Source: a virus (lineage: Duplodnaviria > Heunggongvirae > Uroviricota > Caudoviricetes). From it: a stretch of DNA of 44,826 nt. Positions 17,293 through 31,055 of this stretch are shown one piece after another. Each line of letters opens with the position of its first letter. Within the stretch, counting starts at the first letter, position 1. Under the pieces are notes generated by a model, which had not been told where the DNA came from, searched no databases, and saw only the letters and a program-made list of their open reading frames with translations. The stretch lies in IMG/VR virus record IMGVR_UViG_2585427971_000012; one strand, given 5' to 3'. Position numbers and translations under genes: made by a program.

Positions 17293-20973
<3,681 letters not shown>

Positions 20974-20999
<26 letters not shown>

Positions 21000-21519
21000 T
21001 CAGCAACCCCGGTATCAGTTCATCCAGCGCGGCTGCTTTGTTCATGGCTTTGATGATATCCCGTTTCAGGAAATCAACATGTCGGTTTTCCAGTTCCGGA
21101 AAACGCCGCTGCACCGACAGGGGGATCCCGTCGAGAATACTGGCAATTTCACCTGCGATCCGCGACAGCACGAAAGTACAGAATGCGGTTTCCACCACTT
21201 CAGCGGAGTCTCTGGCATTTTTCAGCTCCTGTGCGTCGGCCTGCGCACGCGTAAGTCGATGGCGTTCGTACTCAATAGTCCCTGGCTGGAGATCTGTCTC
21301 GCTGGCCTGTCGCAGTTCTTCAACCTCCCGGCGCAGCTTTTCGTTCTCAATTTCAGCATCCCTTTCGGCATACCATTTTATGACGTCGGCAGAGTCATAA
21401 AGCACCTCATTACCCTTCCCACCGCCTCGCAGAACGGGCATTCCCTGCTCCTGCCAGTTCTGAATAGTACGGATACTCGCGCCGAAAATGTCAGCCAGCT
21501 GCTTTTTGTTGACTTCCAT
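20974..21519 (-). CDS. nu1: Terminase small subunit Nu1 (181 aa)
   Basis: MEVNKKQLADIFGASIRTIQNWQEQGMPVLRGGGKGNEVLYDSADVIKWYAERDAEIENEKLRREVEEL... matches lambda Nu1; overlaps the A start as in lambda. Confidence 0.95.
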
Positions 21520-21529
21520 TGTTCATTCC

Positions 21530-21708
21530 ACGGACAAAAACAGAGAAAGGAAACGACAGAGGCCAAAAAGCCCGTTTTCAGCACCTGTCGTTTCCTTTCT
21601 TTTCAGGGAGTGTTTTAAATAAAAACATTAAGTTACGGCGAAGAAGAACGGAAACGCCTTAAACCGGAAAATTTTCATAAATAGCGAAAACCCGCGAGGT
21701 CGCCGCCC
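21530..21708. other. cos region: cosN 12-nt cohesive end at 21697..21708, cosB (Nu1/IHF sites) between cosN and nu1
   Basis: Reverse complement of 21530..21708 reads GGGCGGCGACCTCGCGGGTTTTCGCTATTTATGAAAATTTTCCGGTTTAAGGCGTTTCCGTTCTTCTTCG..., the lambda left-end sequence as recalled, directly upstream of nu1. Confidence 0.85.
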
Positions 21709-21856
21709 CGTAACCTGTTGGATCGACGGAAAGGACCCGAAAACGAGAATAATTATCACTTACAGCAAGAATCGAATCTGATCTATTATGGTGCTTGCTA
21801 TTATGTGCCGGCACAAGTGCGTCGTTTACCGTCATTTCACACAGAGGCATCATCAA

Positions 21857-22108
21857 ATGAAAATCAGAAATATTCTCGCTATCTCCCTTGCGACATCATC
21901 CTTCAGTTGCCTGGCATTTAAATCCTCGCCCAATGTGCTACCAGGACCAACGAATCAACTAACTGCGGTAGAAAGTAAAATTATCGGACATTTTTATGCC
22001 CCACACAGTACATTACCCGGAACAACCATCACAGGGACATGTGACGCCTCCCCCGTCCCGGGATGCACCTGTCCGTTTTGTACTATGCTGCGTAGCCAAA
22101 ACCGATAA
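21857..22108 (+). CDS. Small predicted secreted protein (83 aa) with Cys-rich C-terminus
   Basis: ATG at 21857 preceded by GAGG; N-terminus MKIRNILAISLATSSFSCLAF looks like a signal peptide; C-terminal CDASPVPGCTCPFC motif. No homolog recognised; could be non-coding. Confidence 0.25.
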   Translation: MKIRNILAISLATSSFSCLAFKSSPNVLPGPTNQLTAVESKIIGHFYAPHSTLPGTTITGTCDASPVPGCTCPFCTMLRSQNR

Positions 22109-22471: not shown

Positions 22472-22798
22472 TCAAGGACGTGACGGCGTAAAGATAAATT
22501 GTCTCTTCACTCCCTGACAGGGGCGATTCTTTTCAAATCGCCATTTCGCCATGGCCTTCACCACTTCATCACGAAACAAATTATGAGGCTCTGAGCGGAG
22601 AAAAACGATCCGTGTCACAGTCCCATCAGCACCAATATCGAACTTAACCTCAACCAGCCCCTTGATATAATTTGCTGCAGCATATTCCGGATATCGTGGA
22701 TACACCGTCACTAATTGCCGGGGCTCATCAGCTTTTTGCTGCGAGCATCCCACTGCCAGGACAGATAACAGAAAAAGTAGTAAAAGGCGTCTTTTCAT
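22472..22798 (-). CDS. Lipoprotein with TonB C-terminal-like domain (108 aa)
   Basis: From the ATG at 22798: MKRRLLLLFLLSVLAVGCSQQ (signal peptide plus lipobox Cys) then YPRYPEYAAANYIKGLVEVKFDIGADGTVTRIVFLRSEPHNLFRDEVVKAMAKWRFE, which fits the TonB C-terminal domain pattern (YP..A....G.V.V.F.I...G.V, ...W.F). AGGA Shine-Dalgarno upstream. Confidence 0.6.
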   Translation of the reverse strand: MKRRLLLLFLLSVLAVGCSQQKADEPRQLVTVYPRYPEYAAANYIKGLVEVKFDIGADGTVTRIVFLRSEPHNLFRDEVVKAMAKWRFEKNRPCQGVKRQFIFTPSRP

Positions 22799-23278
22799 TT
22801 TTATTCCTACGGGTCTTATTCTGACAATATATCCTGTGTTCCAGACTGCCACATCACCACATCCTGTGCCATTATCTGACTCACATTACATACATCGCAT
22901 CGGGATACAGTAGTAGCACTTTCTGTAATACAGCTTCCTGTTTCTTCCACCATCGCACCGGGATAAACCCGCGAATCATTAACGCGGTAAAAACCCGGTG
23001 TGCATCGTTTTTAATTATTCCCGCACACTCACGCAGAAGGAATTCCCCGTCGGGCTACGGTCATGGTTAATGCGGGAATACGGCGACGATACAGCGCAGC
23101 TAAAAGGGTAATGGACGGATAGACCGGTTTATTTCATTCCACAGGATTCTGAGTGTCCCCAACTTCCTCCAATAGTCTGAGCCCACCTGTGTAGTTTTAA
23201 TTTTCATCAATCCATTTAACTATCGTTTAATTGTTGTCACATAGGATTCTGCCGTTTTTAACAATGCAGGATAATAAG

Positions 23279-23572
23279 ATGAAAAAAATGTTGTTTTCTG
23301 CCGCTCTGGCAATGCTTATTACAGGATGTGCTCAACAGACGTTTACTGTTGGAAACAAACCTACAGCAGTAACACCAAAGGAAACCATCACCCATCATTT
23401 CTTCGTTTCGGGAATTGGGCAGAAGAAAACTGTCGATGCAGCAAAAATTTGTGGTGGTGCAGAAAATGTTGTTAAAACAGAAACCCAGCAAACATTCGTA
23501 AATGGATTGCTCGGTTTTATTACTTTAGGCATTTATACTCCGCTGGAAGCGCGTGTGTATTGCTCACAATAA
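23279..23572 (+). CDS. bor: Bor lipoprotein (serum-resistance lipoprotein, 97 aa)
   Basis: From the ATG at 23279: MKKMLFSAALAMLITGCAQQTFTVGNKPTAVTPKETITHHFFVSGIGQKKTVDAAKICGGAENVVKTETQQTFVNGLLGFITLGIYTPLEARVYCSQ matches lambda Bor; antisense to the late genes as in lambda. Confidence 0.95.
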   Translation: MKKMLFSAALAMLITGCAQQTFTVGNKPTAVTPKETITHHFFVSGIGQKKTVDAAKICGGAENVVKTETQQTFVNGLLGFITLGIYTPLEARVYCSQ

Positions 23573-23603: not shown

Positions 23604-24065
23604 CTATCTGCACTGCTCATTAATATACTTCTGGGTTCCTTCCAGTTGTTTTTGCATAGTGATCAGCCTCTCTCTGAGGGTGAAATAATCCCGTTCAGCG
23701 GTGTCTGCCAGTCGGGGGGAGGCTGCATTATCCACGCCGGAGGCGGTGGTGGCTTCACGCACTGACTGACAGACTGCTTTGATGTGCAACCGACGACGAC
23801 CAGCGGCAACATCATCACGCAGAGCATCATTTTCAGCTTTCGCATCAGCTAACTCCTTCGTGTATTTTGCATCGAGCGCAGCAACATCACGCTGACGCAT
23901 CTGTATGTCAGTAATTGCCGCGTTCGCCAGCGTCAGTTCTCTGGCATTTTTGTCGCGCTGGGCTTTGTAGGTAATCGCGTTATCGCGGTAATGATTAACC
24001 GCCCATGAAAGGCAGACGATGACGCAGATAACCAGAGCGGAGATAATCGCGGTTATTCTGCTCAT
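23604..24065 (-). CDS. Rz: Spanin inner-membrane subunit Rz (153 aa)
   Basis: [53 protein letters not shown]... matches lambda Rz. Confidence 0.95.
23663..23845 (-). CDS. Rz1: Spanin outer-membrane lipoprotein Rz1 (60 aa), embedded in Rz in the +1 frame
   Basis: [60 protein letters not shown]; lipobox and proline-rich tail as in lambda Rz1. Confidence 0.9.
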
Positions 24066-27242: not shown

Positions 27243-28545
27243 GCTTCACCTCCACAGAGGTCAGACGCTAGATGCAAAAAAACGCAGGTGCATTTCTGCA
27301 TCTGTGAAGGGAGAAGAGAGTTTGGATTGTGTGTGCGCATAAACGTCCCCGTTTAGCGCAGAAGTCACCGGAGTTGTTCAGGCTCCGGTGATACAATTAT
27401 GGCGAATTGATTATTCATAATCAAACAAGATAAGGTCTCAAACTTCATGCAAGCCAAGATTTATTTCTGACAGAATTATACAAAGAAGCTATTGGTCAGA
27501 ATCTACTCGGACTGTAAAACATACGCATAACCTTAAGCTCTCACTTTAAGCATTGTTGAAATAATAGCCGTCAAGTACAACCTTAACCACGACTGGGATA
27601 TTTCCCTGGCTACCACGAGTTGTACGGCTATTAAACTGCCGTTAAATTTAGTAAGAGAATTTCATCCGATAAGTCAAGGCATGTAAAACATGAAAATTAA
27701 CAAGATATTATCATCTGCAACACTATTGTATGGTATGTCAATGGCCATGTCGGTCGGGAGTTGTGCAACACCTGTCCAGACTAATCTTCCTGGTTACACC
27801 CCGGGTGCAGATATCATTAGTGTTTCACCGACCAGAAACCAGGTCGATCTCATTGGTGATGTTGTTTATTCCCAGATAAAAGGAACTCGTTCTGTCAGAC
27901 AGCTTCACATGTCAGTTCTTGTCCCGCGAACAAATGATTTAAAACCAGCCATTATTTATTATCCCGGCGGCGGATTCATGTCTTCTGAACATGACAAATT
28001 TATTGAAATGAGAATGGCTCTGGCAGAAGCTGGTTTTGTTGTGGCCGCTGTAGAATACAGAACAATTCCTGATACATTTCCAGCACCAGTTGAGGATGGA
28101 AAAGCTGCAATACGTTACCTGAGAGAGCATGCCAGCAATTATGGGATTGATCCTCAAAGAATCGGAGTTCTGGGTGACTCTGCCGGTGGATGGCTTGCCC
28201 AGATGATGGGAACTACAAATGGTGACAAAACCTTTGATAAAGGTGACTTTCTTCAGCAATCCTCAGATGTTCAGGCAGTTGCCACACTTTATGGGATTTC
28301 TGACTTGTTGAATATTGGCGAGGGGTTCCCTGAATCAGTGCAGGAGGTTCATCGCTCTCCTGCCGTAACCGAAGCCTTAATGATCAATGGCCCTGCATTC
28401 AGAAATTTTGCGGGAGCCCCCATCACAGCGTCAAAAGAAAAAGCGCTAAACGCCAGTCCAATCGGACATATGAAAGGAGTAAAACCCCCATTTCTTATTA
28501 TGCATGGTAGCAAAGACACTCTGGTTTCACCTGAGCAAAGCGCCA

Positions 28546-28553
28546 AACTATTC
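28546..28553. repeat. Target-site duplication, left copy (AACTATTC)
   Basis: Exact 8-bp direct repeat abutting the IS left end; IS66-family elements make 8-bp TSDs. Confidence 0.8.
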
Positions 28554-28638
28554 GTAAGCGTAAACTGACCGCCGTATGTAGCCATCAGACGAGAATTGGT
28601 AACTTAGACGCCCATCTGATATAGACGGACATCTAAGT

Positions 28639-29064
28639 ATGGAATTACAGGACTGGCGAAAAGAACCTCGTAAAAACTATTCGAATGAATTCAAACTTCG
28701 TATGGTGGAACTGGCATCACAACCTGGAGCTTGTGTTGCACAGATTGCACGTGAAAATGGCGTCAATGATAATGTTATTTTCAAATGGCTCAGGCTCTGG
28801 CAGAACGAAGGGCGTGTTTCGCGGCGTCTTCCGGTAACGACCTCTTCTGACACTGGCGTTGAATTATTACCTGTAGAAATAACGCCGGATGAGCAGAAAG
28901 AACCTGTGGCGGCCATTGCGCCGTCTTTATCCACTTCCACTCAGACCAGAGTCAGTGCCAGTTCCTGCAAGGTGGAATTCCGTCACGGTAACATGACGCT
29001 GGAAAATCCATCGCCAGAGCTGCTCACAGTGTTGATCCGTGAACTGACCGGGAGGGGAAGATGA
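28639..29064 (+). CDS. tnpA: IS66-family accessory protein TnpA (141 aa)
   Basis: ORF track; first of three co-oriented IS ORFs; N-terminal HTH-like segment. Confidence 0.8.
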   Translation: MELQDWRKEPRKNYSNEFKLRMVELASQPGACVAQIARENGVNDNVIFKWLRLWQNEGRVSRRLPVTTSSDTGVELLPVEITPDEQKEPVAAIAPSLSTSTQTRVSASSCKVEFRHGNMTLENPSPELLTVLIRELTGRGR

Positions 29065-29411
29065 TCTCACTCCCATCAGGTACCCGTATCTGGCTCGTTG
29101 CCGGCGTTACCGATATGCGTAAATCCTTCAACGGACTGGGAGAACAGGTACAACATGTGCTGAATGATAATCCCTTCTCCGGTCACCTGTTTATCTTCCG
29201 TGGCCGACGGGGTGACACCGTCAAAATTCTTTGGGCTGATGCTGATGGTCTGTGCCTGTTCACCAAACGCCTGGAGGAAGGCCAGTTTATCTGGCCTGCG
29301 GTACGTGACGGCAAGGTATCCATTACCCGCTCGCAACTGGCAATGCTCCTCGATAAGCTGGACTGGCGTCAGCCAAAAACATCCAGCCGTAACTCACTGA
29401 CAATGTTGTAA
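29061..29411 (+). CDS. tnpB: IS66-family accessory protein TnpB (116 aa)
   Basis: ORF track; overlaps the tnpA stop by 4 nt; MISLPSGTRIWLVAGVTDMRKSFNGLGEQV... is the characteristic IS66 orfB N-terminus as recalled. Confidence 0.8.
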   Translation: MISLPSGTRIWLVAGVTDMRKSFNGLGEQVQHVLNDNPFSGHLFIFRGRRGDTVKILWADADGLCLFTKRLEEGQFIWPAVRDGKVSITRSQLAMLLDKLDWRQPKTSSRNSLTML

Positions 29412-29441
29412 AAAACTCCTGACCGCATTATAAAAACGGTC

Positions 29442-31055
29442 ATGAGTCAGAAATACCTCATTCGCATCGCAGAGCTGGAAAGGTTGCTCTCTGAGCAGGC
29501 TGAAGCCCTCCGTCAGAAAGACCAGCAACTGAGTCTGGTTGAAGAGACGGAAGCCTTCCTGCGCTCTGCACTGACACGTGCCGAAGAAAAGATCGAAGAA
29601 GATGAACGGGAAATAGAACATCTGCGGGCTCAGATAGAAAAACTGCGCCGGATGCTGTTCGGTACCCGTTCTGAAAAACTGCGTCGTGAAGTTGAACTGG
29701 CTGAGGCTCTGCTGAAACAACGTGAACAGGACAGCGATCGTTACAGTGGGCGGGAAGACGATCCTCAGGTTCCCCGCCAGTTGCGACAGTCGCGCCATCG
29801 TCGTCCGTTACCGGCACACCTTCCCCGTGAAATACACCGCCTGGAGCCAGAAGAAAGCTGTTGCCCGGAGTGTGGCGGTGAGCTGGATTATCTGGGGGAA
29901 GTCAGCGCTGAACAGCTGGAACTGGTGAGCAGTGCCCTGAAAGTGATCCGCACAGAACGGGTAAAAAAAGCCTGTACAAAATGTGACTGTATTGTTGAAG
30001 CACCGGCGCCGTCCCGCCCGATAGAGCGTGGTATCGCGGGCCCCGGATTACTTGCCCGCGTGTTAACGGGAAAATACTGCGAACATCTGCCACTGTATCG
30101 TCAGAGTGAAATCTTTGCCCGCCAGGGTGTCGAACTGAGCCGGGCCTTACTCTCCAACTGGGTTGACGCGTGCTGCCAGTTAATGACACCGGTGAATGAT
30201 GCCCTGTACCGTTATGTAATGAACACCCGCAAGGTTCACACTGATGACACACCGGTAAAGGTACTGGCACCGGGTCAGAAAAAGGCGAAAACAGGGCGTA
30301 TCTGGACGTATGTCCGGGATGATCGCAATGTGGGTTCGTCATCTCCTCCAGCGGTCTGGTTCGCGTACTCGCCGAACCGGCAGGGGAAACACCCGGAGCA
30401 ACACCTCCGCCCCTTCCGGGGTATCCTGCAGGCGGATGCGTTCACAGGTTACGACAGGTTGTTCAGTGCAGAACGTGAAGGTGGTGCACTGACAGAAGTT
30501 GCGTGCTGGGCCCATGCCCGGCGAAAAATCCACGATGTATACATCAGCAGCAAAAGTGCGACGGCAGAAGAAGCCCTGAAGCGAATCAGTGAACTGTACG
30601 CCATCGAGGATGAAATACGGGGATTACCGGAGTCAGAGCGTCTTGCCGTCAGGCAGCAGCGAAGCAAAGTGTTACTGACGTCGCTGCATGAATGGATGGT
30701 GGAGAAGAATGGTACGCTGTCGAAAAAATCCAGACTGGGCGAAGCGTTCAGCTATGTACTGAATCAGTGGGATGCCCTCTGTTATTACAGTGATGACGGT
30801 CTGGCGGAGGCGGATAATAATGCTGCGGAAAGAGCGCTTCGTGCAGTCTGTCTCGGAAAGAAAAACTTTATGTTCTTTGGCAGCGATCACGGCGGCGAGC
30901 GTGGAGCACTGTTGTACGGGCTGATCGGCACCTGCCGTCTGAACGGTATCGATCCGGAAGCGTATCTGCGCCATATCCTGAGCGTACTGCCGGAATGGCC
31001 TTCCAACCGAGTTGACGAACTCCTGCCATGGAACGTAGTACTCACCAATAAATAA
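29442..31055 (+). CDS. tnpC: IS66-family transposase TnpC (537 aa)
   Basis: ORF track; leucine-zipper-like N-terminus, CxxC...CxxC zinc-finger-like segment (CCPECGGE...CTKCDC), large DDE-type core. Confidence 0.85.
   Translation: MSQKYLIRIAELERLLSEQAEALRQKDQQLSLVEETEAFLRSALTRAEEKIEEDEREIEHLRAQIEKLRRMLFGTRSEKLRREVELAEALLKQREQDSDRYSGREDDPQVPRQLRQSRHRRPLPAHLPREIHRLEPEESCCPECGGELDYLGEVSAEQLELVSSALKVIRTERVKKACTKCDCIVEAPAPSRPIERGIAGPGLLARVLTGKYCEHLPLYRQSEIFARQGVELSRALLSNWVDACCQLMTPVNDALYRYVMNTRKVHTDDTPVKVLAPGQKKAKTGRIWTYVRDDRNVGSSSPPAVWFAYSPNRQGKHPEQHLRPFRGILQADAFTGYDRLFSAEREGGALTEVACWAHARRKIHDVYISSKSATAEEALKRISELYAIEDEIRGLPESERLAVRQQRSKVLLTSLHEWMVEKNGTLSKKSRLGEAFSYVLNQWDALCYYSDDGLAEADNNAAERALRAVCLGKKNFMFFGSDHGGERGALLYGLIGTCRLNGIDPEAYLRHILSVLPEWPSNRVDELLPWNVVLTNK

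Follow-up and report, generated by a model that had tools for sequence, protein, structure and literature searches.

What does a 108-aa reading frame set between the lysis genes and cos of a lambdoid prophage encode, and what might its product do for the lysogen? The question is raised by IMG/VR record IMGVR_UViG_2585427971_000012, a DNA of 44,826 nucleotides (the window, meaning the whole stretch that was analysed) which constitutes a complete lambdoid prophage. An initial annotation, made from the sequence alone, had described the product as a small lipoprotein consisting essentially of a TonB C-terminal domain (CTD) and had suggested that it could compete with host TonB at TonB-box receptors.

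Position of the gene and existing annotation

On the minus strand, the genes of the prophage are arranged in the order tail fibres, J, tail and head genes, A, Nu1, cos, a short accessory region, Rz/Rz1, R, S and Q, with the integrase at the far end of the stretch. The coordinates are collected in Table 1. The 108-aa reading frame is real, with an ATG start preceded by an AGGA sequence. The end of the gene lies 763 bp from cos, and bor and 800 bp separate it from the Rz/Rz1 pair. The initial annotation placed the gene between cos and bor in a non-essential region, and this agrees with the mapped cosN and bor coordinates and with a location between the lysis genes and cos. It was mistaken, however, in calling the gene antisense to the late genes like bor, since the gene shares its strand with Nu1, A, Rz, R and S and is divergent from bor.

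Table 1. Positions of the TonB_C gene, its parts and the other prophage features named in the text, numbered along the window.
Feature	Position	Strand	Basis or remark
A	19074–20999	−	
Nu1	20974–21519	−	
Mosaic junction at cos	21480–21709		comparison with phage 21
cosN, cohesive end GGGCGGCGACCT, nick between 21709 and 21708	21697–21709		alignment to both ends of the phage 21 record
83-aa ORF between cos and the TonB_C gene	21857–22108	+	opposite to the late genes
CDS of the 108-aa TonB_C lipoprotein, stop codon included	22472–22798	−	ORF list and sequence
TonB C-terminal domain, residues 26–104 (E. coli TonB 153–231)	22487–22723	−	PF03544, TIGR01352, PDB alignment, AlphaFold2/Foldseek
Cassette (upstream region and gene) shared with JLK-2012/Stx1a phages	22489–23098	−	blastn; flanks unrelated
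Signal peptide (residues 1–17) and lipidated Cys18 (codon 22747–22745), predicted; lipobox AVGC, Ser at +2	22745–22798	−	PROSITE-style lipobox pattern
Shine-Dalgarno AGGA, 5 nt upstream of ATG	22804–22807	−	read from sequence; annotated RBS in phage 21
Candidate extended −10 element TGtCAGAAT (TGtTAGAAT in JLK-2012)	22818–22826	−	island conserved between two diverged upstream regions
GATAAT	22876–22871		second conserved island
Conserved lambdoid block with two long hairpins, upstream border of the cassette	22940–23100		downstream of lysis genes; ~95% identical to JLK-2012
bor/iss lipoprotein gene, divergent neighbour	23279–23572	+	PF06291 at 1e-30; phage 21 and Nissle annotations
Rz	23604–24065	−	
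Rz1, embedded	23663–23845		
Alpha/beta hydrolase near the inverse autotransporter	27690–28568	+	
Three consecutive ORFs (141, 116 and 537 aa)	28639–31055	+	in an otherwise minus-strand early region
Inverse autotransporter, intimin/invasin family, 1421 aa	31310–35575	−	IAT_beta 6e-101, multiple Big_1/Invasin_D3 repeats

A search for the same DNA elsewhere found 701 bp around the gene to be 100% identical in phage 21, in ev017 and in three ECOR phages. The region is 99.9% identical in Perceval, a prophage of strain LF82, where the protein is matched over its full length at 100%. Among 5426 complete E. coli genomes, 1225 contain the same DNA, in nearly all cases with at least 99% identity, and the carriers include the probiotic strain Nissle 1917, the adherent-invasive strain LF82 and strains labelled as ExPEC. 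In Nissle 1917 the gene is found between iss and the terminase small subunit gene.

Several names have been attached to this sequence, contrary to the initial statement that it could not be assigned to a known named protein. In phage 21 the identical DNA is labelled CPT_21_73, "TonB C-terminal domain protein", and in RefSeq the product is WP_000830178.1, "TonB family protein". Other database labels are "TonB fragment", "partial tonB-like membrane protein" and "truncated TonB-like". Misson et al. (PLoS Pathog 2023, PMC9928086) also count the gene, as LF82_160/PERCE_65 and under the name "TonB fragment", as one of the morons carried by prophage Perceval. Databases and one paper thus already record the gene, its domain and the fact that it behaves as a moron, and observing them is not new. 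A search of the literature on prophages, TonB, superinfection exclusion, phage 21 and lambdoid morons returned no functional study of the protein, nor did a 2024 review of superinfection exclusion describe one. What is new is the corrected description of the product as a complete, selected and, by prediction, outer-membrane lipoprotein of a distinct family that is neither a fragment nor a spanin.

Other parts of the prophage merit brief description. The DNA around cos forms a mosaic junction, being identical to phage 21 from bor through cosN and diverging from it at once past the cohesive end, in cosB and Nu1. The 83-aa ORF between cos and the TonB_C gene would encode a Sec-type signal peptide (MKIRNILAISLATSSFSCLAF) and a Cys-rich C-terminus (GTCDASPVPGCTCPFC). 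It matches a "hypothetical protein" in phage 21 and nothing in Perceval, and the PGAP annotation of Nissle places no plus-strand CDS there. The copies found in phage records are all identical, which leaves this ORF a putative coding sequence. The early region carries as cargo an inverse autotransporter of the intimin/invasin family, along with a neighbouring alpha/beta hydrolase and three consecutive ORFs that are reminiscent of an insertion sequence. Finally, in an actinobacterial assembly attributed to Modestobacter excelsi, a 418-bp contig (NZ_SJEX01000172.1) reproduces the initial 67 codons of the TonB_C gene with 100% identity and is almost certainly a contaminant.

Lipoprotein signal and TonB C-terminal domain

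The amino terminus of the protein, MKRRLLLLFLLSVLAVGC followed by SQQ, satisfies the PROSITE-style lipobox rule. A positive n-region and a hydrophobic h-region precede the invariant cysteine, and the residue at position +2 is not aspartate. The cysteine of the lipobox is invariant in every family alignment that was made, and in the 23 family members that fit the pattern, position +2 is occupied by Ser, Thr or Ala and never by Asp. Essentially all family members have kept the lipobox with a non-Asp +2 residue. By the established +2 rule, a residue other than Asp at this position directs a lipoprotein to the outer membrane. The Ser, Thr or Ala found across the family thus predicts transfer to the outer membrane, and the phage protein is likewise predicted to be lipidated and sorted there. 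About eight residues lie between Cys18 and the start of the TonB_C domain. The mature protein is basic, with a pI of 9.6, as is the TonB CTD with a pI of 10.4.

The remainder of the protein is a TonB C-terminal domain. The Pfam model PF03544 was matched with 49.2 bits (cut-off 24.6, E = 7e-13) and TIGR01352 with 47.4 bits (cut-off 27.1); no other Pfam domain was detected in the protein. A phmmer search of the PDB aligned residues 24–103, 80 positions in all, without gaps to residues 151–230 of E. coli TonB (E ~1e-14, ~38–40% identity). A first structure prediction calculated from seven close relatives had a pLDDT of 59 and was discarded. From an alignment of 13 sequences, AlphaFold2 returned a model with a pLDDT of 86 overall and above 94 across the domain. 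The predicted secondary structure comprises a short helix (38–42), strands at 47–55 and 60–70, a second helix (76–84) and a final strand at 94–103 that corresponds to β3. In the model, a three-stranded sheet is packed on two helices with an exposed β3 edge, as in the TonB CTD fold. When the model was submitted to Foldseek, only TonB CTD structures were returned, with a probability of 1.00 to 1u07, 2gsk_B and 2grx_C and an RMSD of 0.9–1.5 Å. The superposition is close for both receptor-bound forms of TonB (TM ~0.9), with an RMSD of 1.1 Å to the BtuB-bound form (2gsk_B) and 0.9 Å to the FhuA-bound form (2grx_C). The domain search and the structure prediction that had been suggested from the sequence alone both came out in favor of the original description of a 108-aa lipoprotein that is essentially a TonB CTD, in agreement with the lipobox, the Pfam match, the PDB alignment and the Foldseek result.

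The residues that form the core of the fold are well conserved. Counterparts of Y163-P164, G174, G186, P198, F202 and W213 of TonB are invariant in the family, and the counterparts of F180, Y215 and F230 are still aromatic in the phage protein. In place of both Q160 and R166, the phage protein has a Tyr. R166 of TonB reportedly contacts FhuA, and Q160L is a change in TonB that restores activity to TonB-box mutants. The phage protein ends at the equivalent of TonB residue 235, with prolines at positions 105 and 108 just past the predicted β3 strand.

The likeness to TonB is confined to this domain. Full-length TonB equivalog models from NCBIfam reached at most 69 bits against cut-offs of 265–448, and the best of these scores, 69 bits to PRK10819 (cut-off 315), arose from the C-terminal ~85 profile positions only. 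The N-terminal inner-membrane anchor for ExbB/ExbD and the proline-rich spacer are absent, and in their place is the 18-residue lipoprotein signal peptide. With neither a transmembrane helix nor the spacer, there is no link to ExbB/ExbD or to the proton-motive force. Judged by these sequence features, the phage protein cannot transduce energy and is not a TonB energy transducer.

Cassette, protein family and transcription in the lysogen

A 72%-identical variant of the protein is encoded in JLK-2012, Lys8385Vzw and Stx1a phages, and a 41%-identical one in a Klebsiella phage. The length of 108 aa is kept across the variants. A comparison with the JLK-2012 gene yielded a dN/dS of 0.12 (0.11 in the domain core) at a dS of ~1.5, which is near saturation, indicating purifying selection. 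Homologues occur on three unrelated phage backbones in the same slot and orientation, past the holin, endolysin and spanin genes, ahead of terminase and on the late-gene strand; the terminases and neighbouring genes of the three backbones differ. Since homology to JLK-2012 is confined to the interval that ends just inside the downstream end of the gene, the mobile unit is a cassette of the upstream region and the gene.

The upstream border of this cassette is a conserved block of ~160 bp that was identified in 432 phage records, lambda, 434, 933W and VT2-Sakai among them, with 76–100% identity and in all of them downstream of the lysis genes. In comparison, only 15 phage records contain a homologue of the TonB_C gene, as expected of a moron that is a discrete insertion. 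The hairpins of the block, ATTCCCGCA...TGCGGGAAT and CACCGGG...CCCGGTG, are imperfect, the fold z-score on the late-gene strand is a modest −1.95, and no Rfam family was matched by the block. A function as a regulatory RNA specific to the gene was rejected because the block is a general lambdoid element and most of the 432 records lack the TonB_C gene. The block may instead be a recombination junction or an element of the late transcript.

The protein also belongs to a family that extends beyond phages. A HMMER search of 1.8 billion representative proteins identified about twenty proteins of 105–133 aa with 35–46% identity over residues 1 to ~104, almost all of which carry a lipobox. The species-wide scan of the locus took one genome per species, and its query was drawn from a narrower alignment since the widest one had no conserved stretch. 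The chromosomal members are found beside lacZ-lacI in Klebsiella and Raoultella, near nhaB in Serratia and near araA in Erwinia, and in these four genera none is in a prophage or beside transporter or colicin genes. Over the shared domain, the family members are 45–58% identical to each other and 34–42% identical to TonB. As the members are closer to each other than to TonB, the phage gene arose from, or was the source of, a lineage of stand-alone TonB_C lipoproteins. On this sequence comparison, the phage gene was not recently derived from E. coli tonB. The representative search also returned a 152-aa protein (P0139) that has the lipobox LAGC followed by S, a long linker and a CTD that is 60% identical to the E. 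coli TonB CTD and includes its full C-terminus. These features suggest that lipid-anchored TonB CTDs arose more than once.

Published RNA-seq data from LF82 bear directly on expression (PMC9928086). In LB, PERCE_65 was transcribed 8-fold above the prophage background. Its log2 values were 5.0–6.6 in all five conditions, including macrophages, compared to 2.3–3.7 for Rz and 2.3–4.3 for the small terminase gene (PMC9928086). Within macrophages PERCE_65 did not change significantly, whereas bor rose from a log2 value of ~4 to 11, or about 100-fold (PMC9928086). The gene behaves as a moron with transcription of its own in the lysogen, as first proposed; the measurement comes from Perceval of LF82, whose DNA in this region is 99.9% identical. 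Being placed among the late genes on their strand, the gene is necessarily part of the Q-dependent late transcript as well.

A scan of the upstream region with a strict sigma-70 consensus identified no minus-strand promoter, and no terminator was found. Two short islands are conserved between the otherwise diverged upstream regions of the window and JLK-2012. The first, TGtCAGAAT, may be an extended −10 promoter element, which would put the transcription start near 22811. The second, GATAAT, was considered as a Fur box and dropped, since it consists of one hexamer only and transcription is flat over LB, DMEM and macrophages.

Possible roles and known systems

The reading preferred here, although held tentatively and rated just short of even, is that the protein is a decoy in which a TonB CTD tethered to the outer membrane competes with host TonB at TonB boxes. 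As a self-contained moron product, the protein would have a tether of ~8–10 residues that keeps its TonB CTD close beneath the outer-membrane barrels, on their periplasmic side. The exposed edge of β3 would then pair with TonB boxes by β-augmentation, as authentic TonB does, either on TonB-dependent transporters or on incoming group B colicins. The outcome would be an unproductive competitor of host TonB. A lysogen might be expected to show less sensitivity to TonB-requiring agents, namely phages such as T1 and phi80, group B colicins and siderophore-microcins, at the cost of some loss of siderophore and B12 uptake. Studies of TonB itself are consistent with such a scheme. The TonB boxes of transporters and of TonB-dependent colicins pair with β3 of the CTD by β-augmentation, for which secondary structure matters more than side chains; the affinity of soluble TonB fragments for FhuA is 20–200 nM (PMC11658791). 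According to Howard et al. 2001 as cited in PMC9841981, iron import that depends on TonB is inhibited in E. coli when a periplasmic TonB domain is overexpressed. Competition by a tethered domain at TonB boxes is plausible and has this engineered precedent. The domain match and fold, the conserved lipobox, the purifying selection and the transcription in the lysogen also count in favor of this reading.

Some observations argue against a decoy. One is the change of the Q160 and R166 counterparts to Tyr. Furthermore, general antagonism of TonB should impose a cost where iron is scarce, yet the gene is widespread and constitutively transcribed. The housekeeping contexts of the chromosomal relatives suggest that the role of the family is something other than exclusion. 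With respect to the target of any exclusion, the C-terminus of the J tail-tip protein is of the lambda/Stx type and resembles phi80 only in its first ~98 residues. Exclusion would therefore affect other phages, and self-exclusion at the receptor of the phage itself was rejected. PADLOC matched no defence-system model.

The first alternative to a decoy, which is rated as rather unlikely, is that the protein serves as an envelope or virulence accessory with another partner, the TonB_C domain being a strand-binding or peptidoglycan-binding module on the outer membrane. In this capacity it might stabilise the envelope, aid serum or macrophage survival alongside Bor/Iss, or tune iron uptake for the lysogen. 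The relatives at 39–49% identity are ordinary chromosomal genes unlinked to phage, colicin or transporter genes, which agrees with an accessory role, as do the proximity to the serum-resistance lipoprotein gene bor/iss, the constitutive transcription over LB, DMEM and macrophages (PMC9928086) and the same two Tyr substitutions. However, all of the close solved structural matches are TonB-type CTDs whose known job is to bind TonB boxes, and the core residues and the β3 strand have been kept. The flat expression in macrophages, against the ~100-fold rise of bor (PMC9928086), also speaks against an accessory role, and no result points to a specific alternative partner.

A late-lytic role is very improbable. 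The protein could be thought to shut down TonB-dependent transporters on the dying cell or to disrupt the envelope, as implied by PHROG 1267. This group, labelled "Rz-like spanin" in the category lysis, matches the protein over its full length at 5e-43; it and phrog_34172 were the significant matches in PHROGs, all others being weaker than E = 0.1. In three phage lineages the gene also follows the lysis cassette directly, on the late-gene strand, and here it lies in the Q-dependent transcript between Rz and cos. Yet the phage already has a complete Rz with an embedded Rz1. An o-spanin is a short proline-rich lipoprotein whose gene is paired with, or embedded in, that of the i-spanin, whereas this protein is a globular TonB_C domain. 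The gene is transcribed in the lysogen while the flanking late genes are silent (PMC9928086), and lambda, which has the upstream block and no protein match to the gene, lyses normally. The PHROG label looks to have been carried over from gene position and lipoprotein character. It appears to be an annotation error that is liable to spread through phage genome annotations.

Lastly, that the gene is a non-functional remnant of a captured tonB, as its "fragment", "partial" and "truncated" labels and its coverage of only the last third or so of TonB might convey, is effectively refuted by the low dN/dS at near-saturated dS, the conserved signal peptide and ribosome binding site of its own, the greater closeness to stand-alone lipoproteins than to any TonB, the transcription in the lysogen and the constant length of the variants.

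If the decoy reading is correct, exclusion would act at the energy-coupling step that is common to all TonB-dependent transporters and not at one receptor, which has not been described so far. Siderophores and vitamin B12 enter the cell through these transporters, as do many phages, group B colicins, microcins and siderophore-antibiotic conjugates. In much of E. coli, the iron economy and the susceptibility to phages and bacteriocins would then be altered, "Trojan horse" antibiotics could change in efficacy, and a mechanism would be added to the short list of receptor-level exclusion devices. A broader proposal, possible but to be regarded with some doubt, is that the protein is a natural dominant-negative TonB mimic carried in lambdoid prophages of about a fifth of sequenced E. 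coli, where it would make lysogens broadly tolerant of phages that depend on TonB, of group B colicins and of siderophore-microcins. On the same proposal, the relatives on the chromosomes of other Enterobacterales would be host-owned regulators of TonB traffic. A practical gain already at hand is the corrected annotation, which is neither tonB "fragment" nor spanin.

Four known systems provide points of comparison. The E. coli TonB CTD (~150–239; PDB: 1U07, 1XX3, 2GSK, 2GRX) resembles the phage protein in its fold, YP motif, glycines, aromatic core, β3 strand and basicity. The phage protein differs from TonB by the absence of the N-terminal transmembrane helix, the Pro-rich spacer and the last TonB residues, and by Tyr in place of Q160 and R166. 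While TonB is anchored in the inner membrane, the phage protein is predicted to be anchored in the outer membrane instead.

The stand-alone TonB_C lipoproteins of Enterobacterales chromosomes and of Klebsiella phage ST13-OXA48phi12.4 are closest in architecture, having ~105–130 aa, a lipobox, a short tether and the TonB_C domain. Identity is 35–58%, and the family motifs SEPxHLFD and AKWRFE-NKP are shared. Unlike the phage-borne gene, most members are chromosomal, and the family has no described function to transfer.

The periplasmic TonB fragments of Howard et al. (2001, J Bacteriol 183:5885), as they are described in the citing work, are likewise an anchor-free C-terminal portion of TonB in the periplasm. 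Those fragments were soluble laboratory constructs of E. coli TonB that were overexpressed. In contrast, the phage protein is natural, diverged, by prediction lipid-anchored, and modestly expressed from a prophage.

A precedent for exclusion by a small phage lipoprotein is Llp of T5, along with Cor of phi80 and N15. These proteins are located at the inner leaflet of the outer membrane and inactivate FhuA from the periplasmic side. In the case of Llp, FhuA is shut down from the periplasm such that phages, colicin M and ferrichrome are blocked (bioRxiv 10.64898/2026.03.26.714494). Homology to Llp or Cor was not detected, as TonB_C was the only Pfam match and PADLOC gave none. Llp is a 7-kDa disulphide-bonded β protein that is specific to FhuA and acts allosterically on its plug and loops, and it bears no relation in sequence or fold to the phage protein. 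A TonB mimic, unlike the allosteric Llp, would act by competition and on TonB boxes in general.
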